From the IMG/VR virus record IMGVR_UViG_3300033144_006348: 64,000 nt of DNA. The stretch is one strand, 5' to 3'. The notes beneath the pieces are model-generated. The model was not told where the DNA came from. It ran no database searches and was given only the letters and a program-made list of their open reading frames with translations. The translations under genes were made by a program, and so were the position numbers. Source of the stretch: a virus. Taxonomy: Duplodnaviria > Heunggongvirae > Uroviricota > Caudoviricetes. Positions 24,884 to 55,190 of the stretch are shown here, piece after piece. Position 1 is the first letter of the stretch. Every line of letters starts with the position of its first letter.

Positions 24884-24926
24884 AGGAAAGAAATAAATGA
24901 CATCTGAAGTATGCTAGGGACATAAG

Positions 24927-25120: not shown

Positions 25121-25579
25121 ATGAGAGAACTACCAAAAAAACCACCACACCAAATTGATGGAGACCCCCATAATTTGTACCCAACACATACACATGGTCT
25201 TGAACAGGTTGGGTTACCAGAGATGTTTATCAATGGAAAAGCTTTCGGAAACGTTGATAATGCTAATATGCTTAACTATATTGTTGCATATCTTTATCTC
25301 AATGAATCAGAATGGGAAAGATGTGTTAAGGGCGAAGATATGGAAATAACTCTATATGAAGATCCCTCCGATCCAGTCTTTTGTTTAAGAAAAGTTGATC
25401 GAAAGTTTTCTGGAGTTACAACTTCATATTATCACGAAGATCTTAATTGTATAACCGGTTTTCGACAGTTATATGTGAAGGGAGATGATCATGTTTTAAC
25501 AGATGAGTACTTTCTTGAAGAAAACAGAAAATCTAAGATGACAGAGTGTGGCCCTGGTTGCTCAGGGTATGATAAATAA
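25121..25579 (+). CDS. Hypothetical protein (152 aa)
   Basis: ATG 25121 after GAAAGGA. The track start 25103 is a TTG. Confidence 0.4.
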   Translation: MRELPKKPPHQIDGDPHNLYPTHTHGLEQVGLPEMFINGKAFGNVDNANMLNYIVAYLYLNESEWERCVKGEDMEITLYEDPSDPVFCLRKVDRKFSGVTTSYYHEDLNCITGFRQLYVKGDDHVLTDEYFLEENRKSKMTECGPGCSGYDK

Positions 25580-25805
25580 ATTAGATGAACCCTGTGATGG
25601 TTGTTTAATTACATGTGCTTGGTGGAATAATATCTATGATAGTAACATTAAAATAAAACTAACTCCTTACGCTCTTGAAAAAATGAAAACATGTCCATGT
25701 TCATATTGTTTAGTAAAAATGATGTGTAATAGGATAAAATGCGATTTATTTCCTGAGCATTTTAAAAACATAACAGGATCGAAATCTATTATAATCATGA
25801 GTTAA
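25569..25805 (+). CDS. Cys-rich zinc-ribbon mini-protein (MINKLDEPCDGC..CPCSYCLVKMMC)
   Basis: Internal ATG 25569 gives the MINKLDEPC N-terminus shared with 23422 and 23625. A terminator follows. Confidence 0.45.
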   Translation: MINKLDEPCDGCLITCAWWNNIYDSNIKIKLTPYALEKMKTCPCSYCLVKMMCNRIKCDLFPEHFKNITGSKSIIIMS

Positions 25806-35311: not shown

Positions 35312-36796
35312 CTATAGACCAGTAAAACCAGTAAAACATTCTATGAGTTGATCTGTTGATGCGTCTGGCTTTCTTTTATTTGCTAATGGTGATACTTCTT
35401 TAAATTTAAATTTTGAGAAATCAACAGTAAAATTAACAGATATGTTTGCTTTACCACTACGGTTTTTTCCTATTTTACAAAATACTATATCTTGATCTGT
35501 TTGACTCTTAGCTAGAAGAGCTACCAAATCAGCATGCTCTACTTTTTTGATTGATTCTGACATTTGATCAAGATTTAAACTTTGAGCATCAGGGATTTTA
35601 TACACGCCTCTTCCCAGTTGTGAAGCAGTTATTACCGGAATATTATATTGAACTGCAAGAGTTTTTAATGAAAGTGTTATATGACCAAGTTCTAATCTAT
35701 ACATATCATATTTTATATCAGTTTTTAATAGATCAAGATAATCAATGTATAGTCCAGCAATACGTTCTTCCCCATATTCATTGATTACATCATCAACAAC
35801 TGCCATAATATCAAGTGTACTTATACTCATTGCAGGGAAATACTTCATTATAATTGTAGAACCTTTTTTAGCAAGCTCATTATTTATTAGTTGCTTAATA
35901 TCAACACCTTTCATAATATCATCAATCATTTGTGGAATTGTTCTATCAAACATTGGTTGATATGTTCTCATTAGAGATTCTTCAATAGTATTTTCCATAG
36001 TGATATAAATATAAACTTTAGTTATCTCTCCAGGTTTTGGAATCTGATCTTCTAGAGTTGGGGATTTTGTAGCAGATTTGTAGATTGTATTATTTAAAAA
36101 AGTAGATTTACCAGCACCTGAGCCACCTCCAAAAACATATAGTCTTGAAGGTTCGTATCCTCCAGACATTACTTCTTGATCTAAATAAGCAAACCCCGTT
36201 GACGTAGTGTTTTTAGATTGATATTTACTTTTGATCATATCTATAACATGAGTGTAATCGTCTTTGACTAAATCAAGAGAAGCAGCAGCTTCAAGAGTAA
36301 TTGATCTATTACTCTCCATCACATTTGTATATAGTTTTTTAATGGTTACCTCATAGTCTTCAACCATATCATCTATTGAATCAAATGAACCATCCCTGAT
36401 AGAATCTAACACTCTACTAAGTTCATCATAGTTGTTGAACAAAGCATTAATCTTTTTTCTGAGTCTTATTTGTTTTATTATATCCTGAAAAATTTGTTCA
36501 TTAATATTTTCATTCATTTTGAGATCTAAAAAATCAACATGCTGCTTGAACTTTTCACTAAATAAAATACTATCTATAATATTTTCAATAGTTTTATCTT
36601 CAAGAGCCATTGAAGAAATCTTTTTAAGGCAATCTAATTTATTTTTTACAGTTATTGGAACATCAATTGTTTCTTTCTCTGAATAAAAATCTAAAATATC
36701 AAGTATGTCTCTATATAATGCCTTACTTCTCTTAATCATTGACTTTTTATTCAATAGTATTGAAAAACATGAATTTAAAAAAGATTCAGTTATCAA
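35312..36796 (-). CDS. DnaB-like replicative DNA helicase
   Basis: Walker A LYVFGGGSGAGKSTFLNN. Walker B/H2 LYIDYLDLLK resembles DnaB hhIDYLQLM. PVITASQLGR resembles DnaB PVIALSQLNR. Confidence 0.65.
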   Translation of the reverse strand: MITESFLNSCFSILLNKKSMIKRSKALYRDILDILDFYSEKETIDVPITVKNKLDCLKKISSMALEDKTIENIIDSILFSEKFKQHVDFLDLKMNENINEQIFQDIIKQIRLRKKINALFNNYDELSRVLDSIRDGSFDSIDDMVEDYEVTIKKLYTNVMESNRSITLEAAASLDLVKDDYTHVIDMIKSKYQSKNTTSTGFAYLDQEVMSGGYEPSRLYVFGGGSGAGKSTFLNNTIYKSATKSPTLEDQIPKPGEITKVYIYITMENTIEESLMRTYQPMFDRTIPQMIDDIMKGVDIKQLINNELAKKGSTIIMKYFPAMSISTLDIMAVVDDVINEYGEERIAGLYIDYLDLLKTDIKYDMYRLELGHITLSLKTLAVQYNIPVITASQLGRGVYKIPDAQSLNLDQMSESIKKVEHADLVALLAKSQTDQDIVFCKIGKNRSGKANISVNFTVDFSKFKFKEVSPLANKRKPDASTDQLIECFTGFTGL

Positions 36797-36811: not shown

Positions 36812-37222
36812 TCATTTTATTGTTTTTTCTAAATCCTCTATAATAGGATCTGAGGTTTTAGCTTCTGGTAGTATTTTTCTAGCAAAATATTTTCCTATTT
36901 TTTTAGCATACTCACGTAAATCTTCAGTTCTTGGATCAGGTGGATATTTATGTTTTAGAATAGAAGATGAGATAGATGTAGCAGAGACAGAATTACTAGA
37001 TTGACTAGTGGATGTAGAAGAACAGGTATAATCAGGTTCTGGTACTCCCATGATATTAGTAACCCAATCAGTTTTTCCTTCTCCATCACATTGATAACAA
37101 GGAACCTCATATTCTCCTTCCATCCAGTAGTCATTTGTAATAAAAGTTACTCCAGTTCCATCACATAAACTACATATTACTTCGCCTTCTTCAAGATTAA
37201 GTTCCTTCATTGTAATCTCCAC
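36812..37222 (-). CDS. DnaJ-type zinc-finger (CxxCxGxG) mini-protein with a Ser/Thr-rich tail
   Basis: CSLCDGTGV..CYQCDGEGKTDW: two CxxCxGxG repeats plus the conserved KTDW motif. Confidence 0.45.
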   Translation of the reverse strand: MEITMKELNLEEGEVICSLCDGTGVTFITNDYWMEGEYEVPCYQCDGEGKTDWVTNIMGVPEPDYTCSSTSTSQSSNSVSATSISSSILKHKYPPDPRTEDLREYAKKIGKYFARKILPEAKTSDPIIEDLEKTIK

Positions 37223-37475
37223 ATATGTTTTTTATAATGTCTCTATCAATATCTTCCTTTAACTTTTCAGCCATCACTTTAAAAATCTCAAATTCTCCAG
37301 TGAACCAACATATATCAGGACGTTCTCCCATAGCATTAGTAATCCAATCAGTTTTTCCTTCTCCATTACATTTTGAGCATGTAAATTGAGCATATTGGTA
37401 TCCCAAATATGGAGTACACCCTTCTCCCTCACACTTAGAACATATTACTTCGCCTTCTTCAAGTACAATATCCAA
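37197..37475 (-). CDS. DnaJ-type zinc-finger (CxxCxGxG) mini-protein
   Basis: CSKCEGEGC..CSKCNGEGKTDWITNAMGERPD, a paralog of 36812 and 39119. Confidence 0.45.
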   Translation of the reverse strand: MDIVLEEGEVICSKCEGEGCTPYLGYQYAQFTCSKCNGEGKTDWITNAMGERPDICWFTGEFEIFKVMAEKLKEDIDRDIIKNICGDYNEGT

Positions 37476-37694
37476 TTATTCTTCCCCCTTAATTAGTTTC
37501 CCATTTTCTTTTAAGACCTCATTAGCTATATTATACTGATCTTCCTCACTAAATTTACTAATATCAAGATATGAAATCAGATGATTTATAAAGTCGTCAC
37601 AAGATTCTTTGCACATTCCTCTAACTATGCATGTTTTACAAGGAGTGGGATGTTTAATTGAAGTATTAAATTCATCAAGTCTTTTATAGATCAT
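37476..37694 (-). CDS. Cys-rich zinc-ribbon mini-protein of the P-C-x2-C-I-V family (PCKTCIVRGMCKESC), encoded in the replication block
   Basis: Same core motif as the tRNA-array mini-proteins. Confidence 0.4.
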   Translation of the reverse strand: MIYKRLDEFNTSIKHPTPCKTCIVRGMCKESCDDFINHLISYLDISKFSEEDQYNIANEVLKENGKLIKGEE

Positions 37695-39079
37695 ACTGTT
37701 AATACCCTTTTTCTTTCATCAAGTTCTACAAATTCATCTTTTGCTAAAACTTTATTGATAAGATACTCACAATAATCTTCATCAAGATTGGTTAACATAT
37801 CCAACGATCTTGCTATACTGAAAGACTTAATCTTTTGTTTTTTTGTTATTTTTCCTTGGTTAAGAATGCTTGTAGCATGGAGGCAAGATTGATGAAATTC
37901 TTCTATTTCTCCATTTACATATAATGGATAAATATCGCCTGCGTAATCTCGCAACCACCCTTGAATTTCAGAAAATAAAAGGATTGGATAAAATAAAGTA
38001 AGATAAATTTTTAAATCTTCATTATATGTATTGGTTTCATCATTATATATTCTATCAACATCAATTCGTTTGAAGTTGAGAGTATCTGCTACATGATCAA
38101 CTAACCTCTGTGCAGCATCAATACATCTTTCTCCTTTGTAGAATCTTTTATCAATATCGGCAGACTTAAGGCTCATTTTCCTAACATATCCATCACCATC
38201 TTTAACATGAATATATCTTGCCATTTGACTTTGCTTATAAGGACCAGATGAATCATAAGTCATATTCAATTTAATTTTATGCTTATCCCAAACAATTTTA
38301 GTAAAAAATTCATAGAATAAAATATCTCTCCAGTTTGCACCTCCTAAAATATGGAAGTTGAGAAAGTCTCTATTATATTTTTTACATTCATTTAAGAGCG
38401 GGATTAATGGAAGGACATAGATAATACAGGGGATAGACATATCAGTAGCCATATTAGCTACTATACCACCTGTTCCATGTGATTGAAAATAAGGAAATAG
38501 TTCATTGTCTCTCATGATTCGAGTATATATATCCCAAAGTTTAGGAGTTCTAAAATGATGAATATATACAATTTTATCACGAACTACTTTTGGAAGGTCT
38601 CTTGCTTGTGTGTATGACTCTAAATTGAGTTTATAAACATCGTAGAAATTATGGAATATTTTACATCCGGGTCCAGGTGGAATATCTAAAATAAAAGCTT
38701 TGGCAAATAACTCATGATTATTTTTCAACCATTCATAATACATTTTAAATAAATTCTCTGATCTTTCTCTGGAAAATCGACCAGTAGATATTTGAAACCC
38801 GCCGCTATCAACATAAAAATCACATTTATCAAATATACCCATCTCTATACACTGATTAAACATTCGGGTTTCATTTATATCATGTTTTTCAAGTTTCTTT
38901 TTCTTATCGAAGTTTTGTCCATATGAGTGAAGAAAACCAGAGCAAGTAGTCGACAAAAATTTCGCTACATCTGCCCTAGTAAAGTTATCATGAAATTGTC
39001 CTCTTTCTCCCTTAATAAATCTATCAACAATGCCTGCTAAGGTTTCAAATCCAGCAAGGATATAACCACTTCTAACCAT
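37691..39079 (-). CDS. tRNA-guanine transglycosylase superfamily protein, DpdA-like (candidate DNA 7-deazaguanine transglycosylase)
   Basis: FYVDSGGFQIS matches the TGT catalytic-region signature TDSGGFQ. 462 aa with no obvious Zn-binding C-terminal motif, consistent with the DpdA-type branch. QueE-like gene nearby. Confidence 0.45.
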   Translation of the reverse strand: MVRSGYILAGFETLAGIVDRFIKGERGQFHDNFTRADVAKFLSTTCSGFLHSYGQNFDKKKKLEKHDINETRMFNQCIEMGIFDKCDFYVDSGGFQISTGRFSRERSENLFKMYYEWLKNNHELFAKAFILDIPPGPGCKIFHNFYDVYKLNLESYTQARDLPKVVRDKIVYIHHFRTPKLWDIYTRIMRDNELFPYFQSHGTGGIVANMATDMSIPCIIYVLPLIPLLNECKKYNRDFLNFHILGGANWRDILFYEFFTKIVWDKHKIKLNMTYDSSGPYKQSQMARYIHVKDGDGYVRKMSLKSADIDKRFYKGERCIDAAQRLVDHVADTLNFKRIDVDRIYNDETNTYNEDLKIYLTLFYPILLFSEIQGWLRDYAGDIYPLYVNGEIEEFHQSCLHATSILNQGKITKKQKIKSFSIARSLDMLTNLDEDYCEYLINKVLAKDEFVELDERKRVLTV

Positions 39080-39118
39080 TCTAAAACTCCCTTTTATTAT
39101 TTTGTTCCCAATTCACAT

Positions 39119-39334
39119 TTAAAATTCTATAGCACCAATTGCTAAATCTTTTATACCAACTGCTTTTTCAATCCAATCTACTTTACCATGACCAGAACAT
39201 TTAAAACATATTTTTTTATGATCCTTGATATTTAAAATAGATCCTACTTCTATTCCGTAACCATTACACTCAGGACATAACTCTTCTCCTTCTTTTACAA
39301 TTACAAAATCTCTCGTCCAATAATTAAAGGCCAC
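39119..39334 (-). CDS. DnaJ-type zinc-finger (CxxCxGxG) mini-protein
   Basis: CPECNGYG..CFKCSGHGKVDW. Confidence 0.45.
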   Translation of the reverse strand: MAFNYWTRDFVIVKEGEELCPECNGYGIEVGSILNIKDHKKICFKCSGHGKVDWIEKAVGIKDLAIGAIEF

Positions 39335-39900
39335 TATTCCATAACCTCAATAGTATAAGGCTCACCAACAGCGAAAGAAAATTCTGCAGCAGCTTTAAGA
39401 GCAGTCAAAACTCTTTTAGATGGAGACTTAACTCTTTTAGAAGTAAAAAATGATCCCAATGCTGTATTTGCTCCTGACCCTATAGCATTATAGTATCCAT
39501 ACGTTTTATTCATTTGGAAATCAAGTAAAATGTCATAGAGCTCACCTTTCCATGCTATTAAAAAATTGGACTGTTGTATTACAGCTCCATCTTCATCATT
39601 ACATATAACTCCCTTTTTAGTAAAATACTCATACATAGCATCAGGCATTTCTTTTATATCTTTAGGTGGAGTAAAGTAATCAGGTTTTATAAGTTGGCCA
39701 GTTCTAATACTTCCAGTAAATCCAATAAGATAGTCTCCATTCCAAAAAAGCTTTTCACAAAAAACAGGTCTATATTCAGCACGAGGATTAGTTGCAACTC
39801 CATCCGCACCCATATAAACTTTGCCATTTTGTAACAAACCAACAACACATGACATACTTATTCTCCCTTTAACTGTATATTTTCTTGCATCCTTAAACAT
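39334..39900 (-). CDS. HslV/proteasome-beta-like Ntn-hydrolase peptidase
   Basis: VYMGADGVAT and AIGSGANTALG parallel the HslV motifs (GDGQAT, AIGSGG). An N-terminal Ser (MSCVVG) sits where HslV has Thr. Confidence 0.45.
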   Translation of the reverse strand: MFKDARKYTVKGRISMSCVVGLLQNGKVYMGADGVATNPRAEYRPVFCEKLFWNGDYLIGFTGSIRTGQLIKPDYFTPPKDIKEMPDAMYEYFTKKGVICNDEDGAVIQQSNFLIAWKGELYDILLDFQMNKTYGYYNAIGSGANTALGSFFTSKRVKSPSKRVLTALKAAAEFSFAVGEPYTIEVME

Positions 39901-40661
39901 TTTGCTAAGTCAAAAACATAATCGTAAATATGCAGACCCTTAGACGAAGCTATCATTTCTCCATCTTCAACTCCAATTTCTGCTGCAACATACTCTTTTA
40001 ATAATTGAATTGCTGCTAAATTTGCTGGTAATCCATTCCACATATCCCATGATCTAAAATATGGATAAAAATGTAATTTGCCGTCCTGTATTCGTGTGTC
40101 TATATGTCTTAAACATGGAGGATCTTTAAGTAACATATCTGTTGGATGTGCCACCTGTAAAACCATTTGATTATTTCTAAACCCTTTATTTTTATAAGTC
40201 CATATCAGTAGATCTATTTGATTAAGACAAGTACACTTAAACTCTTTATCATAAAAAATTATCTCTAACTCAGATAATGTATCTAGTTCATTAATATAAA
40301 TATCAACCTTACCAATATAATGCAACGCTGCTGGAGGAATAGGATATCTTGTTAATCTCTGACCATAAGTGTAACTCTCCCCTTCTTTTAATTCTCCAGT
40401 CATCAAATAAGGAAGATACCCATCTAAATAATCATCTGCAACTGGATTTGGAATCCCATACTGTGGTTCAATTTGTGGTAGTAAAGGTCTTTCGCCAGGA
40501 TGTGTAATATGAATATCAACATAATCAAATTCCAACCTTTTTTGACCAGCATATGACCCTCTATCAATTGTAAAAACGCTTCCCTCAGTTATCATTCTAA
40601 ATAATGTTTGAAACCAAGCATCTCCTAAATGTGTAGCTTTTATATCTTGTTTATTTAACAC
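39858..40661 (-). CDS. Thymidylate synthase (ThyA) family enzyme; may be a dNMP hydroxymethylase rather than a true TS
   Basis: DPPCLRHIDTRIQDGKLHFYPYFRSWDMWNGLPANLAAIQLL parallels ThyA LPPCH..DGKLS.QLYQRS.D.FLGLPFNIASYALL. Confidence 0.55.
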   Translation of the reverse strand: MLNKQDIKATHLGDAWFQTLFRMITEGSVFTIDRGSYAGQKRLEFDYVDIHITHPGERPLLPQIEPQYGIPNPVADDYLDGYLPYLMTGELKEGESYTYGQRLTRYPIPPAALHYIGKVDIYINELDTLSELEIIFYDKEFKCTCLNQIDLLIWTYKNKGFRNNQMVLQVAHPTDMLLKDPPCLRHIDTRIQDGKLHFYPYFRSWDMWNGLPANLAAIQLLKEYVAAEIGVEDGEMIASSKGLHIYDYVFDLAKCLRMQENIQLKGE

Positions 40662-41010
40662 CGTGAAGAATACCTCCTTGTGGGATTACTACAGCAGTTC
40701 CTTCTTGGGACATTAATTCTACAGAAGTCAATTGACTTATTAAATTTTTATCAGTAAGTTTCCCATATACGTCTTCGTATCTGAGAACTTTAAGAATCCT
40801 GTTTTTAATAACTATAGTCTGGCCTCCATGTTGAAGATGAAAAATTAAAACATCTCCAACTTTAATTGCAGAGACATCTTCTCCAACTGTTACAACTCTT
40901 CCATAACCTTGAGGATCTATAATTGCATCAGTAGGAGCAATTATTCCTCCACTAGATTTTTGTCTCTTTAATTCTTCAACGATAATCTTGTCTTTTACTG
41001 CTTCCAGCAT
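40651..41010 (-). CDS. GroES/gp31-like co-chaperonin
   Basis: Size about 110-120 aa. N-terminal MLEAVKDKIIVEELKRQKSSGGIIAPT fits the GroES pattern (roof hairpin, mobile loop GGI). Confidence 0.5.
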   Translation of the reverse strand: MLEAVKDKIIVEELKRQKSSGGIIAPTDAIIDPQGYGRVVTVGEDVSAIKVGDVLIFHLQHGGQTIVIKNRILKVLRYEDVYGKLTDKNLISQLTSVELMSQEGTAVVIPQGGILHGVK

Positions 41011-41296
41011 CTTGTTTTCTCCTTTTCATTTGATATTTTCTTGCTCTATCTTGCATCTCTTTCTTTTTTTCTTCCTCTTTTTTGAGCATTCTGATTGCTC
41101 TAGCTCTTTTCTTCCTCTTTTTTATACTAGGTTTTTCATGAAACATAGAATCTCGAAACTCTTTTGCGATTCCGCTTTTAGAATACTTTTTCCTGAACCT
41201 CTTGATAAGTTCGTGAGTAGATTCTCCCTTTTTCTGGACAACACATATTCCAAAATTCTCTTCTGGCTGATAATGTTCAGGTCTTTCTAAGTGCAT
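40976..41296 (-). CDS. rpsU: Ribosomal protein bS21-like protein with N- and C-terminal extensions
   Basis: ..ICVVQKKGES..LIKRFRKKYSKSGIAKEFRDSMFHEKPSIKKRKKRARAIR aligns with bacterial bS21 (..VIKV.[41 protein letters not shown]). Confidence 0.5.
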   Translation of the reverse strand: MHLERPEHYQPEENFGICVVQKKGESTHELIKRFRKKYSKSGIAKEFRDSMFHEKPSIKKRKKRARAIRMLKKEEEKKKEMQDRARKYQMKRRKQDAGSSKRQDYR

Positions 41297-41583
41297 TTTT
41301 AATCATCTCCTTCCTTAACCTCTTCACGAAAGTTATAATTAGGTGTCCTAAAAGAGGCACACCCAGACCAACGATTACTGGACTCAAACTACCAAGAACC
41401 CATGCAAGATCTGTGTTCATATTTAACATCCTTTTAACGAGGAAATAACAATTTTGTCCTCGCCCTTCTTTTTAAATAGTAAAAACCATATAATCTTCCA
41501 AACATTTTGATCAGGCCTATTACTTGCAGACCCTCCGTCTTTAGATTCTAGTTGAATACTATATTTTCTCATTTCTTTCCTCC

Positions 41584-42270
41584 TTATACAAAACCATAAA
41601 TTATATGACTTCGTGACGAAAAATTGAATTTGTACTTCTCTGCAACATCAAAAACTTCTCCTGAATTTTTGATTAGCGTACTTCTATTTGTACCCTCTGG
41701 CATTAACCAAACTCTTCTACTTGCGAATCTATCTTTTTTCATTAATTGAGATAATATTTCTAAATAATCAATCACAGTAGATCGAGTCTCATAAACAATC
41801 TTAATATAAACATCATCAAAATCTAATAATTCTTTAGTTTTTTCAACCGCTTCTCTGAGATCTTCAGGTGTAAATATTTTTGGTGAATATATAAACTTTA
41901 CATTTTTAGCCTTAGATGTTGATAAAACTAGTCGTGGTAATTTATATCCATTTGACTCAACATTTACAATTGGATACTCTAATTCATTTAATAATGCAAG
42001 AGTTTCAGCATAATGTTTCGGTACCGTAGGTTCTCCACCTGTTATTAACAAACCGCAATTTGTATCATCTATCTGTTTTTGAATGTCTGATAAAAGGTGG
42101 GGTGCCTCTGCTGAGATACGCATTTTTACAGATGTATCACACCAAGAGCATTTGAGGTTACACGTTTTGAACCTGAGGATAAGCATTGCTCGGCCCATAT
42201 CTGGACCTTCCCCTTGAAAACTCCTAAAATTTTCGATTAGTCTTACCGATTCCATAAATTCCCCTTTCAT
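41584..42270 (-). CDS. queE: Radical-SAM 7-carboxy-7-deazaguanine synthase (QueE)-like enzyme
   Basis: IENFRSFQGEGPDMGRAMLILRFKTCNLKCSWCDT fits the QueE N-terminus (F.T.QGEG..G.P..F.R..GC.L.C.WCDT). A GGEP motif is also present. Confidence 0.55.
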   Translation of the reverse strand: MKGEFMESVRLIENFRSFQGEGPDMGRAMLILRFKTCNLKCSWCDTSVKMRISAEAPHLLSDIQKQIDDTNCGLLITGGEPTVPKHYAETLALLNELEYPIVNVESNGYKLPRLVLSTSKAKNVKFIYSPKIFTPEDLREAVEKTKELLDFDDVYIKIVYETRSTVIDYLEILSQLMKKDRFASRRVWLMPEGTNRSTLIKNSGEVFDVAEKYKFNFSSRSHIIYGFV

Positions 42271-42286: not shown

Positions 42287-45200
42287 TTAAAAAGTCAATA
42301 CTTCCATGTTTTTCTGTACATCTAATAACGGTTTTAACATCAATTCATATCTATCAACAAATACAAATTTTAGAGTTGCTTTAGTATCTCTTATGAAATA
42401 ATCTGGTAATTTTTCCTCTTCGTCGGGGATTGCTATTACTTGTAACTTTTTCCCTTCTGAAATAAACTTATGATACTTGTTCCTAACATCTTCTGGAGCT
42501 TTCATAATATCAACGCCTGAAACCCAATACATATATGCTCTAGCACCAGGTCTATGACTCATATACATTATTTCATTCCATGCTTCCATAGCCTTAACTC
42601 CCTGTGGAATGAGTTTATAATCTTTCAATGGTCTTCCATATGACACAGGCCTTGCTATGGTTTTACTTCCTTCCTTAATTAATCTGATAAATTCCCCTTC
42701 TTTACTTTGGACAAATTTTAATAGGCCTGATATTAATATCTTTTCAGATTTTAAAATTAACTCTGAAAGTTCAGTTAGAAACTCTTTTGATTTACTTGGG
42801 TAGTCTGATCTTTTAATCTCTACTCCCATATAACTAATTTCGTCCACATCTTCTCCTTCTATATTTATAACACGAATTGCATATCTCTTTTTAGCTAAAA
42901 ATAAGCCTCTTGAAATAACCAACTCATTTTTTAACATCAATCTGTTAAAGTCCATATCTGTATTATGTTTCTTTACAACTTCAATAATTTTATCATTGTT
43001 TAAAAACTCTTTTATTTTAGAACACCAAGAAAGAATATTTTCAACTGTCTTATCTTCTGGAAAATTTTCAAAACAACAAAAAATTGAGTCAGTATCACCG
43101 GTTACAATGTATTCATTACTTCTATCTGGCATTGCCTTTTCAAACATTTCTTGTTTAGTTAGAGGATTTGGTTTTACATATGGTAGTCCTGTACTTAAAT
43201 GCCTCATAAAAGCATCAGCCTCAATGATAGAAGTTTTTAGAGCTTCTTGCCCTGATAGTGTTACTGCAGCAGCTAGAGATGTATCAAAAAATCTGAATGC
43301 TTTATTTGCAACAACTCCATATAAAGTATTAGCTAGCACTTTATAAACTAATTGCCTTGTATAAAAGAATGCTCTTCCATCTTGATCTTTCTTGTCGATT
43401 GCCTCAAACATCTTCTTTTTATATTCTTTTCTGGACTTCATTAAATTATCAACAATTTCTCCAAAAACAGAAAACTCTTTCTTCTGAGGTTTGAAAAAAC
43501 AACCATTAATAGTAAATATTAATTCATCATCTTTTATTTTTTTAAACAGTTGATCCTTAGAAACTTTAACTAATTTATTTTCATACAATGGGTCAATATA
43601 CACTTCAATTTTTTCTGGTAGATTGTCTGGATAATATGTCAATTCATATCCTAAATGAGGATCTTTTGTTTTCATTACATAACTATTTACCCCTATATTG
43701 TATGTAATCATTAAACTTGGATATAGTGAAGCAAAATCAAAGTCTGTGATATGATCATAGATTCCAGGAATTGGTTCAAATACAAATGCTCCTGGATAAT
43801 CTTTCTTTTTAACATGAGGATCAGCATTTTTTGATGCAAGTCCCTTTTTATTCAAGTATGAAACCATCAATGTATCAATTTGTCCGAACGGTGAAGATCC
43901 TGTATCAAAACTTGCATTACAAATAATCCTTAACTCATTCAACAAATTTATATGAGATAATTTATTTTCAAGACTCTCCAAAATTTCAGCATCTCTAATA
44001 TTATACTCTATCGTTGTATTTAACATCTTCCAGTACATTTCGTTAAATTTAAGAGGAAGTTGTATCTTGGTTATTTCTAATTCATGTTGTGCAATAAAAC
44101 CAAGCTTATAGTTCTCCATCTTTGTGAATGTAAAAAATTTATATAAAAACTCTTGATCCAAAATAACACAACCTGGAATATGGCAAATATATTTAGAACC
44201 ATCAATATACACTTCTCCAAAATTTGAAAGTGAATTAGGCGGCATCCCTATTTTATTCATACGGTTATAAATATAGTCCATATCAAAGTTAATGAAGTTC
44301 CACCCACTCATAAAATCTGGATCATCTTTTTTAAAGTCTTTAATAAAAGTATTTAATAACTGTCTTTCATTACTGAATATTTTAATTTCAACTCCTTCTT
44401 GATCTTTAATTGGTTCAGTTTTATTATCAATAACGTAAGTAGTTTTCTTTCCATTTAAAATTGTAGTAATCATATTGATCGGAAACAATGATTTCTTTGG
44501 ACTGGGGAATATAGTTTCTTTTCCAGTATCAACCTCAATATCACAAAACATCACATTATTTTGTGATTTCTGTGGTTCTCCCTCATTAAAGAAATAATAA
44601 TCCATTGTATGTTTCGCTGTAATTTTATAGTCGCCTTCATATGTAATCTTTGGATCTAAACTAAATCTGTCTTTGTATGGAATTGAAATCTGATTCAGGT
44701 CATCATATGGAACTAATTTCCTTGCTTCAACTCCCTCTGGAACTTGATAACATACAAACTCATCACTTTCTTGGTGATAACATTTAAAATTATGTTTGTC
44801 TCTAAAAATATATAAAACTTTACTCTTTTTATTTAAATACTGAACATCTATTAATCTATACTCATCCGTATAAAACTTATCTGGAATCCTGTATCTATGA
44901 ACGCCTTTTCCTAGCGTTTTCCCTTTTACAGTTGCTTTTATATCAATCTTCTTTCCACTAATTAATTCAGCAACCTTTGCTATATCAGCTTCAAATTTTG
45001 GCATCCATAAATTTTTATTTCTATTTACAAACGATGGATGAACTGTCAAGAATAATTTATAATCCTCCCACTCAAAAATCTGTCCGTGGATATTAGTTAT
45101 TCCACTCTTGGCAATTCCAAAAGCAGACATTGGGCTTCCGCCCATCAAAAGAACTAAATCTGGATTGCATACTCGAATCATATTCATACAATTCTCTTTA

Positions 45201-45550
45201 CATCTTTCAATAACATCATCAGTTGGATTTCCTGTAGTTCCATCTGGATTTAATGTCTGACATAAAACAACATTTGTTAAAAGATATTTAATTTTATTCA
45301 ACCCAAACATTTCAAAATATTGACGAAATACTTTTCCCGCAGTTCCTATCAATGGTTGTCCTTTCTTGATTTCATTCTTTCCAGGATTTTCAGCTACAAC
45401 CACAAGAGAAACTTTAGATAAATCATCTTCTGAATTAGTTTCTATCATACAAGAAGGTGTATCTAAAAGAGGACACACTGAACAGTTTGCAAATGATTTT
45501 TTTATTGATTCCAAATATATACCCCTTTCTTTTTGATTGTTTGTTCCCAT
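42287..45550 (-). CDS. Family-B DNA polymerase with 3'-5' exonuclease and an N-terminal family-4 UDG-like domain
   Basis: N-terminus: C..C.L, VVAENPGKNE..GQPLIGTAGKVF and HPSFV, as in UDG family 4. Exo I DIEVDTG. Motif B KVLANTLYGV. Motif C VTGDTDSIF. Confidence 0.75.
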   Translation of the reverse strand: MGTNNQKERGIYLESIKKSFANCSVCPLLDTPSCMIETNSEDDLSKVSLVVVAENPGKNEIKKGQPLIGTAGKVFRQYFEMFGLNKIKYLLTNVVLCQTLNPDGTTGNPTDDVIERCKENCMNMIRVCNPDLVLLMGGSPMSAFGIAKSGITNIHGQIFEWEDYKLFLTVHPSFVNRNKNLWMPKFEADIAKVAELISGKKIDIKATVKGKTLGKGVHRYRIPDKFYTDEYRLIDVQYLNKKSKVLYIFRDKHNFKCYHQESDEFVCYQVPEGVEARKLVPYDDLNQISIPYKDRFSLDPKITYEGDYKITAKHTMDYYFFNEGEPQKSQNNVMFCDIEVDTGKETIFPSPKKSLFPINMITTILNGKKTTYVIDNKTEPIKDQEGVEIKIFSNERQLLNTFIKDFKKDDPDFMSGWNFINFDMDYIYNRMNKIGMPPNSLSNFGEVYIDGSKYICHIPGCVILDQEFLYKFFTFTKMENYKLGFIAQHELEITKIQLPLKFNEMYWKMLNTTIEYNIRDAEILESLENKLSHINLLNELRIICNASFDTGSSPFGQIDTLMVSYLNKKGLASKNADPHVKKKDYPGAFVFEPIPGIYDHITDFDFASLYPSLMITYNIGVNSYVMKTKDPHLGYELTYYPDNLPEKIEVYIDPLYENKLVKVSKDQLFKKIKDDELIFTINGCFFKPQKKEFSVFGEIVDNLMKSRKEYKKKMFEAIDKKDQDGRAFFYTRQLVYKVLANTLYGVVANKAFRFFDTSLAAAVTLSGQEALKTSIIEADAFMRHLSTGLPYVKPNPLTKQEMFEKAMPDRSNEYIVTGDTDSIFCCFENFPEDKTVENILSWCSKIKEFLNNDKIIEVVKKHNTDMDFNRLMLKNELVISRGLFLAKKRYAIRVINIEGEDVDEISYMGVEIKRSDYPSKSKEFLTELSELILKSEKILISGLLKFVQSKEGEFIRLIKEGSKTIARPVSYGRPLKDYKLIPQGVKAMEAWNEIMYMSHRPGARAYMYWVSGVDIMKAPEDVRNKYHKFISEGKKLQVIAIPDEEEKLPDYFIRDTKATLKFVFVDRYELMLKPLLDVQKNMEVLTF

Positions 45551-46167: not shown

Positions 46168-46806
46168 ATGTCAACAGAGTTAATACCTTTAGCTGAAGCG
46201 GAGAAATTTTTGGGTATGGGTAACCTCCCATACGATAAAGATAGAGTTCATAAAAATTGTGACATTTTAGTAGAATGCGCTACAGAAAATGAGGAAGCTG
46301 AAAAAATTCCTCTTTATTATGACGCGAGATTTATTTGCTTGAATGTTATAGGTGAAGCTCAACTTGTCAAAACGGGACAGTTTCATCTTGAATCTCCGCT
46401 AGCAGATGCCTGTGATCGGTGTAAAGGTGTTGGACGAATGCTAAAGCGGGAAATGAAGGAAATAGAAGTTGGATGTCACGACTGCGGCGGCGAGGGTGGG
46501 ACCAAAGAGGAATGCCCTGCATGTAATGGAACCAGGCGACATGTTAGAAAATTTCCAGGGTTGACAATTTCTGTTAACTGCACTCAATGTGATAATAATG
46601 GAGCGAAGATCGCAAAATGCGAAGTTTGCCGAGGATCTGCTAAGGTTAAAAAATCAATTAGCACAGGCAAATTCGCTTCTTCAAGCCAATGTAAATCATG
46701 TAAAGGAACCGGAAAGAAACCTCCAAAGAAACCAAAACGAATTTTTCATGACGATTTTCAGAGTCAATTGGCCGGTTTTCTTAAAAATGCAGCTAACGTA
46801 AAGTAG
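46168..46806 (+). CDS. DnaJ central-domain-like zinc-finger protein (four CxxCxGxG-type repeats)
   Basis: CDRCKGVGR, CHDCGGEGG, CPACNGTRR, CTQCDNNG, CEVCRGSAK, CKSCKGTGK. Lone plus-strand gene after the ncRNA-like segment. Confidence 0.45.
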   Translation: MSTELIPLAEAEKFLGMGNLPYDKDRVHKNCDILVECATENEEAEKIPLYYDARFICLNVIGEAQLVKTGQFHLESPLADACDRCKGVGRMLKREMKEIEVGCHDCGGEGGTKEECPACNGTRRHVRKFPGLTISVNCTQCDNNGAKIAKCEVCRGSAKVKKSISTGKFASSSQCKSCKGTGKKPPKKPKRIFHDDFQSQLAGFLKNAANVK

Positions 46807-50303: not shown

Positions 50304-50381
50304 CGGGGTGTAGCTCAGTCTGAGTAGAGCGCTCGGTTTGGGGCCGAGGTGTCGGAGGTTCGAATCCTCTTACCCCGACCA
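50304..50381 (+). tRNA. tRNA-Pro (anticodon TGG)
   Basis: Hand-folded cloverleaf. Acceptor CGGGGTG/TACCCCG, anticodon loop TTTGGGG, T-loop TTCGAAT, A discriminator, encoded CCA. Confidence 0.8.
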
Positions 50382-50422
50382 TTTTAGAAGTAAACTAAAA
50401 CAGTGAAAGGGAGAATTAGTGA

Positions 50423-50698
50423 ATGAATCTTAGGAAAAAAAGTTATAAAAGTATTGTTGCACCATTGGTCAAAATGGCAGGGGATCTAAAAGATTACGCC
50501 GACAGTCAAAAAACTGTAATCTTAGATTTGGTAGAGAAGAAAACCAAGATTGAGAGCGACATGGAATCATCACAGCTTGAAATAACAAGATCACAATACA
50601 CCTCAGAAAAGATTTCAGAATTGTTAGCTTCTGATGGGGTTGACGACTATGAAGAAGATCCAGAACAAGATGAAACAAAACCAGAAATAACAGAATAG
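50423..50698 (+). CDS. Small acidic hypothetical protein (91 aa)
   Basis: Lies between two tRNAs. RBS GAAAGGGAG. Confidence 0.4.
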   Translation: MNLRKKSYKSIVAPLVKMAGDLKDYADSQKTVILDLVEKKTKIESDMESSQLEITRSQYTSEKISELLASDGVDDYEEDPEQDETKPEITE

Positions 50699-50706
50699 AG
50701 ATGAGT

Positions 50707-50791
50707 GCCAGTGTGGCGTAACTGGTAGGCGCGCATGATTTAGGATCATGTGTCTTAGGGCGTGGAGGTTCAACTCCTCTCACTGGCACCA
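50707..50791 (+). tRNA. tRNA-Leu (anticodon TAG), type II with long variable arm
   Basis: Acceptor GCCAGTG/CACTGGC, anticodon stem CATGA/TCATG, loop TTTAGGA, encoded CCA. Confidence 0.8.
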
Positions 50792-50822
50792 TTTTTAATT
50801 CACGAATTGCGAAAGGAGTATT

Positions 50823-51059
50823 ATGAAACAAGATGAAATTGATAGAGTAGAAAAAGTAAAACAGGAACACGCACAAAATTTAAAAGAAAAGATGAAATCA
50901 ACTGGAGATAAATTTCAGGATTTCGTAAACTGTTTAGAATATATGAAACACGAGTTTTGTTATGATGAAATAAAGGTAATAATATCAAGCTCCTCTAGTA
51001 ATCCAACGCTTGAATGGTCCATAGAAACCTCTAGAGAAAATATAGAGACTAAAAAATGA
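50823..51059 (+). CDS. Hypothetical protein (78 aa)
   Basis: RBS GCGAAAGGAG 7 nt before the ATG, directly after tRNA-Leu. Confidence 0.4.
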   Translation: MKQDEIDRVEKVKQEHAQNLKEKMKSTGDKFQDFVNCLEYMKHEFCYDEIKVIISSSSSNPTLEWSIETSRENIETKK

Positions 51060-51454
51060 GTCAAGAATTTGTACAATTTACTTTTCCATGTTCTGATTGT
51101 ATAGTCAGAGCAGCATGTAAAGACCAAGAAAGATTAACAGTTAAGGATCTATATAACACTAAATCTGCCAAATGTCTTACAATACCAAAACTCGAAGATG
51201 ATAAATCATATCATAAAGTCTTAATGGAATGTATGGCAAATTTATTCAAAGATATAATGGGCAGTGTACAAAAAGATGAAGATCCAATAGGAGTGAATAA
51301 AGAAAACAAACTTCCTTACAGATATGTTACATTATTTTATCAGATGGCATGTGCTATGCAATACATGGTAAATTCAACAAGCTGGAAAATAGGTGAATTG
51401 AAAGATTTTGATAGGGATGAAATAAATAGAAAGTTGAAGCTTGCTAAACTGTGA
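51056..51454 (+). CDS. Cys-motif protein related to the P-C-x2-C-I-V family (FPCSDCIVRAACKD)
   Basis: Core motif present; 132 aa. Confidence 0.4.
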   Translation: MSQEFVQFTFPCSDCIVRAACKDQERLTVKDLYNTKSAKCLTIPKLEDDKSYHKVLMECMANLFKDIMGSVQKDEDPIGVNKENKLPYRYVTLFYQMACAMQYMVNSTSWKIGELKDFDRDEINRKLKLAKL

Positions 51455-51798
51455 AAAAAAATATTCATGAACTTCTAAAAATATGTAATGAAAATAGTGG
51501 AAAAATCCTAAGATCAAAAGAGATTTTAAAACTATTTGGATATTCTACAAACACTAATGTTAATGAAACAACAGCTGGCTATTTTTTAACAATGGCGGGT
51601 AATTCTCCTGGTTCTGGTACGCCACAAATGTGGAAAATAGGTAGTTGGGTAATTGTTACAAGAGATGAACTAAATAGTTTAGTAAATCCGAAAGACATAT
51701 GGGAAGGTAGATGGACAACAATAAAATATAATCAATATTTATTTCCTAGAGACCGTATTCCATGGTGGAGACTAAAGGAATATGGTGGAAAATTATGA
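51451..51798 (+). CDS. Hypothetical protein, tandem paralog 1
   Basis: LLKICNENSGKILRSKEILKLFGYS..WKIGSWVIV..WWRLKEYGGKL. Confidence 0.4.
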   Translation: MKKNIHELLKICNENSGKILRSKEILKLFGYSTNTNVNETTAGYFLTMAGNSPGSGTPQMWKIGSWVIVTRDELNSLVNPKDIWEGRWTTIKYNQYLFPRDRIPWWRLKEYGGKL

Positions 51799-52130
51799 AA
51801 GACATATATGATCTGCTTAGAATATGTAATGAAAATAGTGGTAAGGTTTTAAAAACTCCAGAGATTTTAGAACTATTTGGATACTCTATAAAAAGTAGCA
51901 TATTTCAGACAAAAGTTATAGAATTTTTGTTTTTTCAAGGATATATACATCCATCAAACTATTGGAAAATTGGAAGTTGGGTGCTTCTCTCTTATAAAGA
52001 ATTAAGAGAATATGAACCAGAAGAAAGACAAGCATATTTTGAGGCAAGTAAAATATCTAAAAATCTATATCTATATGATAAAAATAAAGTTGAATGGTGG
52101 AATCTAAAGGAATATGGAGGTAATCTATGA
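51762..52130 (+). CDS. Hypothetical protein, tandem paralog 2
   Basis: LLRICNENSGKVLKTPEILELFGYS..WKIGSWVLL..WWNLKEYGGNL. Confidence 0.4.
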   Translation: MVETKGIWWKIMKDIYDLLRICNENSGKVLKTPEILELFGYSIKSSIFQTKVIEFLFFQGYIHPSNYWKIGSWVLLSYKELREYEPEERQAYFEASKISKNLYLYDKNKVEWWNLKEYGGNL

Positions 52131-52302
52131 CTATAGAGGCATTTCAAATATTATCTAATTTTTATTCTACAATAGTTCTAATAGGAATGGCGGTATGGTG
52201 GAGTCGTAAGAGTAAAATAGATAGACTTGTAAAGGGTATTCTCTTAATCGGTGGTATGATGGAAATTTTTACTATTATTTTAAATTTGTAGAAAGGAAAT
52301 GT

Positions 52303-52680
52303 ATGTTAAGACAAGATGGAGAATATATTATCTTTATTATACAACATAAATATAAAGATAAAAAAGTTGAAGGCTGGAGTAATTCAGGAGATTGTGGTCA
52401 GTTTTTTCCTAACGGGCCATTTACAGAAAAGGAATGGAGAACCAAACATAAAGAAATAGATTATTTTAATGCATCGGGGGATTGCTGGCAAGATACTGGA
52501 GTACATGGAACATATGATCTAAACGAGGCATTTCAGCTTTTAGTGAAGGTAATTCAATGGGCTCCAGAACACAGATTCCGTATTGCAAGAATAGAAATAA
52601 AACAAAAAACAGAACAGGTTGCAGAAGCCAAAGGGAACGAAAGTAAATCAAAAGAAGAAGTAGAAGCAGTATTAACATAG
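52303..52680 (+). CDS. Hypothetical protein (125 aa)
   Basis: RBS GAAAGGAAATG. Its stop abuts tRNA-Thr. Confidence 0.4.
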   Translation: MLRQDGEYIIFIIQHKYKDKKVEGWSNSGDCGQFFPNGPFTEKEWRTKHKEIDYFNASGDCWQDTGVHGTYDLNEAFQLLVKVIQWAPEHRFRIARIEIKQKTEQVAEAKGNESKSKEEVEAVLT

Positions 52681-52681
52681 T

Positions 52682-52758
52682 GCCGATGTAGCTCAGCAGG
52701 CCAGAGCTGGGGTTTTGTAAACCTCATGTCGCAGGTTCGATTCCTGTCATCGGCCCCA
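52682..52758 (+). tRNA. tRNA-Thr (anticodon TGT)
   Basis: Acceptor GCCGATG/CATCGGC, D-stem GCTC/GAGC, anticodon loop TTTGTAA, encoded CCA. Confidence 0.8.
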
Positions 52759-52776
52759 TTTATGAAAGGAGAATCA

Positions 52777-53301
52777 ATGCAAAAACACACCGATATTACA
52801 GTTGGGTTATTTGGCACATGTGACAACATTCCTTGGCGTATACCCTTTATCGAACGGTATGAAAAAGAAGGAATAAAGTGGTTTAATCCCGATTATGGTT
52901 CTGGATGGCATCCAGGATGCATACCTGAAGAGAATTATTTTTTAAACAACGCTGAAATCATCTTATTTCCTATCCTAAAAGACTCCCTAGGGTCTGGTAG
53001 TCTTGCAGAGATAGGGTTCAGTATACAGAACGTAGTACGAAATATTCAAAATGGTAAACAACAGTTCCTTATAGTACTCATAGATGATGACTGTACTGAT
53101 GAACGCAAAACGGATGAAGAAAGAAAAAGGTCTATCAAGGATAGAAAGTTAGTCAAAACTAAGTTAATGGAAAAACTGTCATATCCATCCATAACCATAG
53201 TTAATTCGCTTGAAGAGATGCTTGATCTTAGTGTCGATCTTTACATACTTGCGAAGAAAGGGGAGACAGTAGAAGATAACAGCGAAAGTACGGCTTCTTA
53301 A
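52777..53301 (+). CDS. Hypothetical protein (174 aa)
   Basis: ATG 52777 lies 18 nt after the tRNA CCA, with RBS GAAAGGAG. Confidence 0.4.
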   Translation: MQKHTDITVGLFGTCDNIPWRIPFIERYEKEGIKWFNPDYGSGWHPGCIPEENYFLNNAEIILFPILKDSLGSGSLAEIGFSIQNVVRNIQNGKQQFLIVLIDDDCTDERKTDEERKRSIKDRKLVKTKLMEKLSYPSITIVNSLEEMLDLSVDLYILAKKGETVEDNSESTAS

Positions 53302-53307
53302 TTTAAT

Positions 53308-53399
53308 GCCCCTGTAGCTCAATGGATAAAATTCTTAACAGAAAACAGAGCACCTGAACTGTCAGGTAGACGTTGGTTCGAATCCTGCCGGGGGCACCA
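53308..53399 (+). tRNA. Atypical tRNA-like gene (92 nt): perfect acceptor stem and T-arm, ~20-nt insertion in the D-loop region, non-canonical 6-nt anticodon-region loop AACTGT; identity undetermined, possible pseudo-tRNA
   Basis: Acceptor GCCCCTG/CGGGGGC, A discriminator, encoded CCA, T-loop TTCGAAT. D-region reads GCTCAATGGA[taaaattcttaacagaaaac]AGAGC. Confidence 0.4.
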
Positions 53400-53420
53400 T
53401 TTAAAAGAAAGGAGTGAAAA

Positions 53421-53639
53421 ATGGGATATGATCTCAATACAGTTGGAGATATTAGAAGAAGATTAAAACAATATCCATCAGACTTAAAAGTATTAACTCT
53501 TCACGATGGACTTGGTTATCCAATTAATGAAATTAGAGTTACTTATGTTAAACCAGATAAAAATTGGTCAGGTGACGACTGTTTCATAGGGGCTGAAGAA
53601 GATGATCCTGATGCTATTCAAGTTCTGGAGATTGACTAA
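53421..53639 (+). CDS. Small hypothetical protein (72 aa)
   Basis: RBS AAAGGAGTGAAAAATG 22 nt after the tRNA-like gene. Confidence 0.4.
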   Translation: MGYDLNTVGDIRRRLKQYPSDLKVLTLHDGLGYPINEIRVTYVKPDKNWSGDDCFIGAEEDDPDAIQVLEID

Positions 53640-53872
53640 TGAAATATCATATTGCTTATCAAGATGGTGATGATGCAATACTTTCCAGTTTTAATTCCAT
53701 GGAAGATTTAAAAAGGTTTATGACATCATGTAATCTACAACCAGATGATGTATGGTTAATTGAAGGAGGTGAACTAATTTCTGGGATTGGAAATAAACAC
53801 ATGCCAAAGGAATTTTTTGATGATAAAAGAAAACGGAAAAATAGTAAAATGCCCCGAATGCGGAAGCGATGA
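53639..53872 (+). CDS. Small hypothetical protein (77 aa)
   Basis: ATGA overlap with the upstream gene. The C-terminal basic tail overlaps the next ORF, so its true end is uncertain. Confidence 0.3.
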   Translation: MKYHIAYQDGDDAILSSFNSMEDLKRFMTSCNLQPDDVWLIEGGELISGIGNKHMPKEFFDDKRKRKNSKMPRMRKR

Positions 53873-53984
53873 TATTGAAGCGCCTATGCCATTTGATTAT
53901 ATAAAGCGATGTAATAATGATGAGTGCCCATTTTATTTAGAGAATAATATGAGAAATGAATTTATGACCGGTGAACATAATTAA
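53820..53984 (+). CDS. Small zinc-ribbon protein (CPECG..CNNDECP)
   Basis: Internal ATG of track ORF 53787..53984. Its stop abuts tRNA-Arg. Confidence 0.3.
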   Translation: MIKENGKIVKCPECGSDDIEAPMPFDYIKRCNNDECPFYLENNMRNEFMTGEHN

Positions 53985-54064
53985 GCCTCTGTAGCTCAGT
54001 CCGGAAGTAGAGCAGCTGGTTTCTACCCAGCATGTCGGGGGTTCAAATCCCTCCAGGGGCTCCA
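53985..54064 (+). tRNA. tRNA-Arg (anticodon TCT)
   Basis: Acceptor GCCTCTG/CAGGGGC, anticodon stem GCTGG/CCAGC, loop TTTCTAC, encoded CCA. Confidence 0.8.
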
Positions 54065-54080
54065 TTTTGAAAGGATCTTT

Positions 54081-54266
54081 ATGAAGATATTCAACATATT
54101 TTGGGTAGAATCTCCATGCAAAAAATGTATCATTCGACCATGCTGTCATAGAAGAGATGATTGTGACACAAGATTTGAATTTGAAGAAGGAATATTTTTT
54201 AGGATATTAAGTGCTGGGTTTGCAGGAATTATATTTGGAATTATAAGAAACATAACTGGAATTTAA
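54081..54266 (+). CDS. Tail-anchored Cys-rich zinc-ribbon mini-protein (SPCKKCIIRPCCH + C-terminal TM)
   Basis: Family motif. TTTGAAAGGA RBS directly after the tRNA. Confidence 0.45.
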   Translation: MKIFNIFWVESPCKKCIIRPCCHRRDDCDTRFEFEEGIFFRILSAGFAGIIFGIIRNITGI

Positions 54267-54284
54267 AAGAGAAAGGAGTGAAAA

Positions 54285-54458: not shown

Positions 54459-54480
54459 ATTAATTGGAAAGGAGTGAATA

Positions 54481-54912: not shown

Positions 54913-54931
54913 AATTTGAAGTGAATTTATA

Positions 54932-55171: not shown

Positions 55172-55190
55172 AAATATTAAGAGGTTTAAT

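Follow-up and report, generated by a model that had tools for sequence, protein, structure and literature searches.

Does the 64,000-nucleotide stretch of viral DNA in IMG/VR record IMGVR_UViG_3300033144_006348 (the window, from here on) encode a module that places 7-deazaguanines in phage DNA? An earlier note on the sequence had suggested as much from two open reading frames (ORFs), one for a QueE-like radical-SAM enzyme and one for a TGT/DpdA-like transglycosylase, and both are present exactly as given there, on the minus strand (Table 1). The window is phage DNA, with genes for a T4-type major capsid protein (Gp23), a portal (Gp20), a prohead protease, a family-B DNA polymerase (PolB), a DnaB helicase and 11 tRNAs; its G+C content is ~34%, and its source is an uncultured T4-like phage. 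The two genes lie between PolB and DnaB in a block of overlapping, co-directional genes. Their identities, their conserved pairing, and the FolE/QueD/QueE(/QueC) clusters found by the polymerase in distant relatives all support the suggestion, and we think it likely that the window carries a 7-deazaguanine DNA-modification module within its replication block, giving protection against restriction.

Viral genomes modified with 7-deazaguanines are sought by means of DpdA, which is used as their signature gene. Modifications of this type block many restriction enzymes and, in viromes, can distort sequencing as well as nanopore base-calling. That phages modify DNA with 7-deazaguanines by way of a DpdA transglycosylase is reportedly already well known through Hutinet's work of 2019 and 2023; the novelty here is the transglycosylase family, not the type of system.

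A TGT/DpdA-superfamily barrel with an intact catalytic set and no zinc site

The transglycosylase-like protein, 462 amino acids (aa) long, consists of a TIM barrel (approximately residues 1-345) followed by a family-specific helical C-terminal domain (approximately residues 350-462). In structure comparisons DpdA is its best solved match, with a clear gap to generic barrels, and its viral structural neighbors in BFVD are phage DpdA/TGT proteins, including nt-1 R9TGF0 (E = 1e-6). The VDSGGFQ motif from which the protein was first recognized occupies residues 90-96 and is no chance resemblance; it is in register with the DSGGFQ of the Motura-type family described below and is conserved in the 100 members of a diverse alignment of the protein's own family (A2), which are 18-46% identical to the window protein. 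Within A2, the aspartates D91 and D276 are present in 100% of members and D132 in 99%; H243 and L245 are likewise at 100%, F/Y95 and G205 at 98%, G204 at 95% and H175 at 93%, and S92, G94 and Q96 are each conserved in at least 94%.

Alignment suggests that D91, D132 and D276 correspond to Asp95, Asp130 and Asp256 of Salmonella DpdA, and that F95, L245 and H175 correspond to its Phe99, Leu236 and His181. Asp95 and Asp256 mutants of the Salmonella enzyme are inactive (PMC10164549). By analogy with that enzyme, D91 is predicted to be the general acid/base, D132 to recognize the base and D276 to be the nucleophile, with F95 and L245 stacking on the base (PMC10164549). The window protein is a TIM barrel of the TGT/DpdA superfamily whose catalytic set is intact; the original assignment, as opposed to one to an unrelated TIM barrel, is borne out by the structure match, by the conservation of the Asp triad and by a strong profile match to a phage TGT family (below).

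The protein had also been described as lacking the zinc motif of tRNA-Tgt enzymes, and indeed CxCxxC occurs nowhere in its 462 aa and no Cys column reaches 50% in the 100 family members. That this loss is to be expected of DNA-acting DpdA enzymes stands only in part: it is true of DpdA2 from Vibrio phage nt-1 but not of bacterial DpdA or the Motura-type family, both of which keep zinc. Because the validated nt-1 DpdA2 is also without a zinc site, the site is not required for DNA-acting members.

A large subfamily missed by standard searches

A tblastn search with the 462-aa protein found no match in 50,697 phage records, and its family was found solely in metagenomes, as 534 clusters at 90% identity or ~300 at 50% (E <= 1e-3), all unannotated and on contigs of up to 304 kb. 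Among annotated families, PHROG 887 ("queuine tRNA-ribosyltransferase") gives a partial match (8e-7, residues 68-176). A shallow alignment (A1, Neff 2) compared by hhalign with single DpdA3 and DpdA1 sequences gave no match, and a hidden Markov model (HMM) of A2 run against PDB sequences recovered the DSGGFQ stretch of TGT alone, at E ~1-2; detection needed the diverse A2 together with family alignments on both sides of the profile comparison. When A2 was compared in this way with the Motura TGT family (A6), hhalign gave 98.9% with E = 1.6e-17 over 189 columns and all catalytic motifs in register, and the A6 HMM gives a direct match to residues 86-296 of the window protein. A6 in turn matches the experimentally validated nt-1 DpdA2 (92.9%, E = 3.7e-7), so that the tie of the window family to nt-1 DpdA2 is an indirect one, through these two matches.

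The 462-aa protein belongs to a large, previously undescribed subfamily of zinc-less proteins of ~460 aa with their own helical C-terminal domain, which is akin to the Motura-type and DpdA2 enzymes but separate from both; the literature searched yielded no account of a DpdA-like subfamily of this sort. The motif-based call of DpdA was thus right as to the superfamily and missed the divergence, the protein lying outside Pfam TGT and outside DpdA3, and distant from DpdA2. The family is abundant in uncultured T4-like phages, where it keeps a constant place between PolB and DnaB and QueE is usually the sole biosynthetic gene nearby. It escapes Pfam, NCBIfam and tblastn against the 50,697 deposited phage genomes, so that an entire clade of environmental T4-like phages is overlooked in DNA hypermodification surveys. 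A DNA transglycosylase scaffold that is free of zinc could also be put to use in swapping DNA bases at specific sites.

Two peculiarities were noted among family members. The Pfam model of the Fpg/Nei H2TH DNA-binding domain matches one A2 member (3.7e-4), which, if real, would be a fusion in favor of a DNA substrate, and the locus L044 (IMGVR_UViG_3300027881_000007) codes for two DpdA-like paralogs of 468 and 497 aa.

A divergent phage-type QueE

The partner protein has the N-terminal QueE signature and GGEP motif that were reported for it, with residues 15-46 reading FRSFQGEGPDMGRAMLILRFKTCNLKCSWCDT and GGEP at residues 78-81; its motif set comprises QGEG, Arg33, C37-x3-C41-x2-C44, GGEP, ETNG and SPK. 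In a family alignment of 35 sequences that includes bona fide phage QueE (A12), Q19, E21, G26, R33, C37, C41, C44 and D45 are invariant, as are the QGEG, Arg and SPK signature residues. PHROG 2076 ("QueE-like radical SAM domain") matches over the full length (5.7e-33). Pfam finds the generic Radical_SAM domain alone, and the NCBIfam ranking places three QueE models first (TIGR03963, 1.7e-16; TIGR04349, 1.9e-11; TIGR04322, 7.5e-8) and then NrdG2 (1.2e-7).

With the single protein as query, a search of all PDB sequences matches only the QueE structures 5TGS and 6NHL. The A12 profile matches the three solved QueE proteins (5TGS, 2e-26; 6NHL, 3e-22; 4NJG, 2e-15), followed at 9e-6 by the next match, some ten orders weaker, and no NrdG/PflA activase appears among its PDB matches at E <= 0.01. 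A tblastn search with the window QueE matched 223 of the 50,697 phage records, and among the matches listed each is a QueE gene from a lineage whose possession of 7-deazaguanines is known or has been predicted (Rosebush, phiST, CP220, immuto, the 9g/Seuratvirus group and Motura). Judged by its sequence, the protein is a divergent phage-type QueE, as had been proposed, and not an NrdG-type activase.

In one relative (L012:1487-3181), QueE is split by an intein with Hint/PT-HINT domains (564 aa in total), and GIY-YIG/NUMOD3 homing endonucleases (cluster c18) are scattered over 20 related loci.

A constant gene pair in a variable replication segment

In the window the order is PolB, QueE, two small ORFs, ribosomal protein S21, a GroES-like gene, a ThyA-like gene, an HslV-like peptidase, a CXXC mini-protein, the TGT-like gene, three small Cys-rich ORFs and then DnaB, which closes the segment. 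Every gene from PolB through DnaB is co-directional, with intergenic gaps of -43 to +39 bp (some overlap), and 16 bp lie between PolB and the start of the downstream QueE. Promoter and terminator scans of the 34-50 kb region gave counts at chance level (79 vs 73 ± 8 and 7 vs 5.8 ± 2.6, respectively).

Related loci were collected with subclade alignments A3, A9 and A10, and comprise a core set of 52 loci from relatives, to which loci of distant subclades were added later. PolB-QueE-[variable]-TGT-like-DnaB-portal is the order in most of the 52, QueE being next to PolB in relatives too, and 48 of 57 distinct members of the DpdA-like family have QueE within 10 kb. The QueE/TGT-like pair is the constant element of an otherwise variable PolB-DnaB segment: S21 (27 loci), GroES (38 loci), ThyA and HslV are present or absent independently of the pair across the 52 loci, and in L042, L039 and L029 QueE and the TGT-like gene are merely 35-407 bp apart. 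Because they are not conserved with the pair, these cargo genes probably have no function in the modification pathway, with the ThyA-like gene, as nucleotide metabolism, a possible exception.

Other pathway genes accompany the pair in some relatives. Contigs L068 and L069 (195 kb and 357 kb) have the order QueD (PHROG 2389, 1e-30)-QueE-FolE-PolB-TGT-like; L057 carries QueE, QueD and FolE, and L058 carries FolE and QueD. QueE lies directly upstream of the TGT-like gene in L062-L065 and L074. QueC is present in L039 (PF06508, 2e-58) and L066, and a divergent QueC-like gene (1.5e-12) in L011, L012 and L042. The sister Motura-type family is located in QueE-QueD-FolE-QueC-TGT-PolB clusters. Lineages beyond the core clade lend independent support.

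Comparison with known systems

By sequence profile the closest known relatives are the Motura-type enzymes, represented by Achromobacter phage Motura gp026 (YP_009903615) and ~20 jumbo-phage homologs. They have DSGGFQ, LD-P, a conserved His, GG, HILG and T-DSS in register with the window protein and are of similar length (~470 aa), and the Motura deazaguanine cluster also has ThyA and GroES neighbors. The Motura TGT is predicted to incorporate deazaguanine into DNA (PMC7824862). The differences are that Motura-type proteins keep a CxCxxC...H zinc site and some reach PF01702, whereas the window protein has neither a conserved Cys nor a Pfam match; that Motura has a full FolE-QueD-QueE-QueC set plus an amidotransferase beside the gene, whereas the window has QueE alone; and that the C-terminal domains do not align.

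The nt-1 DpdA2 (YP_008125322; 464 aa) is also zinc-less and also from a T4-like myovirus, with VDSGGLQ, HMLG and SYDSS in register with the window protein, and inserts preQ0 into DNA experimentally (PMC10516641). Its gene is flanked by FolE and QueC within a complete preQ0 cluster that is a long way from PolB, in contrast to the window gene, which is between PolB and DnaB with QueE alone. DpdA3 (Cellulophaga phage phiST CGPG_00065, Campylobacter CP220 and Flavobacterium immuto) is likewise a remote homolog of TGT that standard annotation overlooks, encoded between the polymerase and genes of the 7-carboxy-7-deazaguanine (CDG) pathway in phages without QueC, and its four-motif scaffold (DNGAGD, PxD, HFLG, STDS) is common to the window protein. 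However, DpdA3 has 259 aa compared to 462, and DpdA3 phages encode FolE, QueD, QueE and DpdL or QueC*, which the window does not. We rejected membership of the window protein in DpdA3, the profile comparison between the two being nonsignificant (see below).

Bacterial DpdA (Salmonella Montevideo, PDB 7UI4), from the Dpd restriction-modification system, retains its zinc and depends on an ATPase, DpdB (PMC10164549), unlike the zinc-less window protein, near whose gene no DpdB/ParB-like partner was seen; no sequence similarity between bacterial DpdA and the window family is detectable by HMM against PDB sequences. Compared to bacterial Tgt (Zymomonas mobilis 3UNT/1P0B), the window protein is without the zinc subdomain and a PF01702 match and has a different C-terminal domain, and its gene has QueE and replication genes for neighbors instead of queA, yajC or secD.

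A proposed pathway and its alternatives

FolE, QueD, QueC and QueF were found nowhere in the 64-kb window by Pfam on all ORFs or by clade-trained HMMs (nothing at E <= 10), and tblastn of the window with phage reference proteins recovered QueE alone; the statement in the earlier note that FolE, QueD and QueC were not recognized there holds by all three methods. The precursor 6-carboxy-tetrahydropterin (CPH4), and any QueC step, would therefore be supplied by the host or by distal phage genes. As to such distal genes, two proteins from the ends of the window have no entry on record, an exact 34-mer from its right end occurs in neither IMG/VR nor the metagenome collection, and the 12.6-kb JGI contig L003 reaches no further than the window. 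Partial pathways completed by the host have been described for DpdA phages (PMC6884629) and jumbo phages (PMC7824862).

We propose that QueE, as its homology supports, would convert CPH4 to CDG by radical-SAM chemistry, with CPH4 coming from host FolE and QueD or from phage genes beyond the window. CDG may be used as such, or may be made into preQ0 by a host or distal QueC. The DpdA-like enzyme, by its fold and catalytic residues, would then swap guanine in the phage DNA for the 7-deazaguanine through the double displacement of TGT enzymes: D276 would attack C1' to give an intermediate in which enzyme and DNA are covalently joined, with D91 acting as acid/base, while D132 and H175 would read the Watson-Crick edge and F95 and L245 would sandwich the base. 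The modified DNA would be expected to withstand host restriction endonucleases, in line with established knowledge (Hutinet 2019 and 2023).

Several observations weigh against such a pathway. The 462-aa protein has no match to Pfam TGT or to any NCBIfam model, and none of the 100 A2 members matches Pfam TGT (PF01702) or DUF6610 (PF20314, DpdA4) at E <= 0.1. The direct comparison of A2 with nt-1 DpdA2 is weak (hhalign 13%, E = 2e-3), though the motifs are in register, and that of A2 with the DpdA3 alignment (A5, the phiST CGPG_00065 family) is not significant (6.4%, 28 columns, the HxLG motif alone). For QueE, TIGR03963 scores 60.6 bits against a cut-off of 260, and all QueE models are below their curated NCBIfam equivalog cut-offs, which leaves room for diverged radical-SAM chemistry. 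Completeness of the pathway rests on host or unseen genes, with FolE/QueD within 10 kb in none of ~50 loci of the same T4-like clade. There is no QueE nearby in L008/L009 (a 32.6-kb HK97-type phage), L034, L056, L059 or L061. These exceptions are like the "DpdA singleton" phages, which are believed to draw on preQ0 from the host (PMC6884629). S21, GroES and the many tRNAs of the phage leave room for a translation-related role. Lastly, DNA as the substrate, the base inserted, how far substitution goes and the role against restriction are matters that we infer.

A more specific form of the proposal is that the zinc-less family is functionally distinct and inserts CDG, or a base derived from CDG that is not preQ0, into DNA in step with replication. 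We offer this tentatively and consider it rather unlikely. The gene typically has only QueE near it, or FolE-QueD-QueE and no QueC, in the manner of the DpdA3 phages with their 100% replacement of G; the link to replication is suggested because the DpdA-like gene has a constant place between PolB and DnaB. Were it true, a large and widespread clade of uncultured T4-like phages would have heavily or fully 7-deazaguanine-substituted genomes. The QueE-only and CDG-only contexts, with the fixed polymerase-helicase position, make these phages a test case for which base is inserted and by what route high substitution is reached.

Could the TGT-like enzyme instead act on host or phage tRNA, inserting preQ0, preQ1 or a queuine-type base for translational take-over, with QueE boosting the precursor? 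It would then act together with the phage S21, GroES and tRNA genes, but S21 and GroES are dispensable across the loci whereas PolB and DnaB are constant neighbors, and no GUN anticodon occurs among the 11 window tRNAs. The family is also without the zinc subdomain, which all tRNA TGTs conserve (PMC10164549), it fails Pfam TGT, and its best solved structural match, DpdA, is a DNA enzyme; the related nt-1 DpdA2 inserts its base into DNA (PMC10516641), and queuosine-specific genes were present in no virus analyzed in PMC6884629. With these points combined, a tRNA target appears improbable.

We find it quite improbable, too, that modification is pre-replicative, the base being swapped on dGMP, dGTP or a salvage intermediate and the adjacent polymerase incorporating 7-deaza-dGTP to full replacement of G. 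QueE does abut PolB, the pair is always within the replication block, and dNMP kinase and MazG-like genes are near the module in some relatives; moreover, the CDG-only contexts without QueC (L068/L069 and L057) are like the 100%-replacement DpdA3 phages, whose mechanism is unproven (PMC10516641). However, all DpdAs tested so far work on DNA post-replication, the field holds all known 7-deazaguanine DNA modifications to be post-replicative (PMC10516641), no nucleotide-binding motif is evident, and no window gene resembles a dGTP-depleting enzyme.

That the pair has nothing to do with deazapurines, being an NrdG/PflA-type activase or other radical-SAM enzyme beside a TIM barrel that is unrelated or catalytically dead (either a QTRT2-like pseudo-enzyme or a glycosidase), is scarcely credible and was rejected as essentially refuted by the conservation of the catalytic Asp residues, the hhalign match to a bona fide phage TGT family, the QueE profile matches and invariant QueE signature residues, and the embedding of the pair in FolE, QueD and QueC contexts.

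Other features of the window

Table 1. Positions of the DpdA-like and QueE genes and of other features in the window
Feature	Coordinates	Strand	Basis
ORF with very long poly-serine tracts, 756 aa	482..2752	-	no family match
NADAR domain protein	10403..10900	+	window-wide Pfam scan
Calcineurin-like phosphoesterase	10848..11510	+	window-wide Pfam scan
SPFH/Band-7 protein	11467..13353	+	window-wide Pfam scan
PP2C-like phosphatase	17568..18401	+	window-wide Pfam scan
DnaB-type replicative helicase	35312..36796	-	Pfam DnaB_C 3.8e-21, PHROG 19 1.6e-43
Divergent DpdA/TGT-like transglycosylase, 462 aa	37691..39079	-	motifs, profile-profile and structure comparison
Variable cargo separating QueE from the TGT-like gene	39119..41572	-	Pfam, NCBIfam and PHROG matches
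ThyA-like protein (cargo)	39858..40661	-	TIGR03283 5e-29 (below cut-off), Pfam Thymidylat_synt 6e-12
GroES-like co-chaperonin (cargo)	40651..41010	-	
Ribosomal protein S21 (cargo)	40976..41296	-	Pfam 3.6e-12
QueE-like radical-SAM enzyme (7-carboxy-7-deazaguanine synthase), 228 aa	41584..42270	-	motifs, PHROG 2076, profile vs PDB
Family-B DNA polymerase with N-terminal family-4 uracil-DNA-glycosylase (UDG) domain	42287..45550	-	Pfam UDG 8e-17, DNA_pol_B_exo1 and DNA_pol_B; NCBIfam Arch_udg 7e-21
Protein upstream of PolB, 310 aa	47339..48271	-	PHROG 2170, 7e-4
Protein upstream of PolB, 179 aa	48926..49465	-	APHPDDE motif, by eye
11 tRNA genes amid small ORFs	50304..62202	+	
Two adjoining OmpA-family lipoproteins	56789..57963	+	Pfam OmpA 1.9e-40
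Cys-rich paralogous ORFs	37476..37694, 23222..23858, 24656..25106, 25548..25805, 51056..51454, 54932..55430, 56509..56697, 58810..59049, 62222..62503, 62694..63053		C-x-x-C-[IL]-V-[KR]-x-x-C motif
DnaJ-type CXXCXGXG mini-proteins	39119..39334, 36812..37475, 46168..46806		

The UDG-PolB fusion is a single ORF of 1087 aa and is kept in relatives L004 and L006. The ThyA-like protein is of archaeal type, with PPC and GLPAN motifs recognized by eye, and could be either a plain thymidylate synthase or a hydroxymethylase; its gene is within the module in 26 loci. Upstream of PolB, the 310-aa protein has a weak glycosyltransferase match and is kept in 28 loci, and the 179-aa protein resembles PIG-L/LmbE deacetylases by eye and is kept in 14; together with the ThyA-like gene, these two might constitute a second, sugar-type DNA modification. 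In three relatives the QueC-like gene stands where the window encodes the 310-aa protein, which we considered as a QueC homolog but rejected, given its weak likeness to glycosyltransferases.

The 11 tRNAs are for Pro, Leu (three), Thr, Arg, Gln, Met, Ser (two) and Val. More than 12 paralogous small ORFs with the common Cys-rich motif are present in the window, one of them directly downstream of the DpdA-like gene, and small zinc-finger ORFs of this kind form the largest paralog cluster in the related loci (83 ORFs in 34 loci). The two OmpA-family lipoproteins contain glycine-zipper segments.

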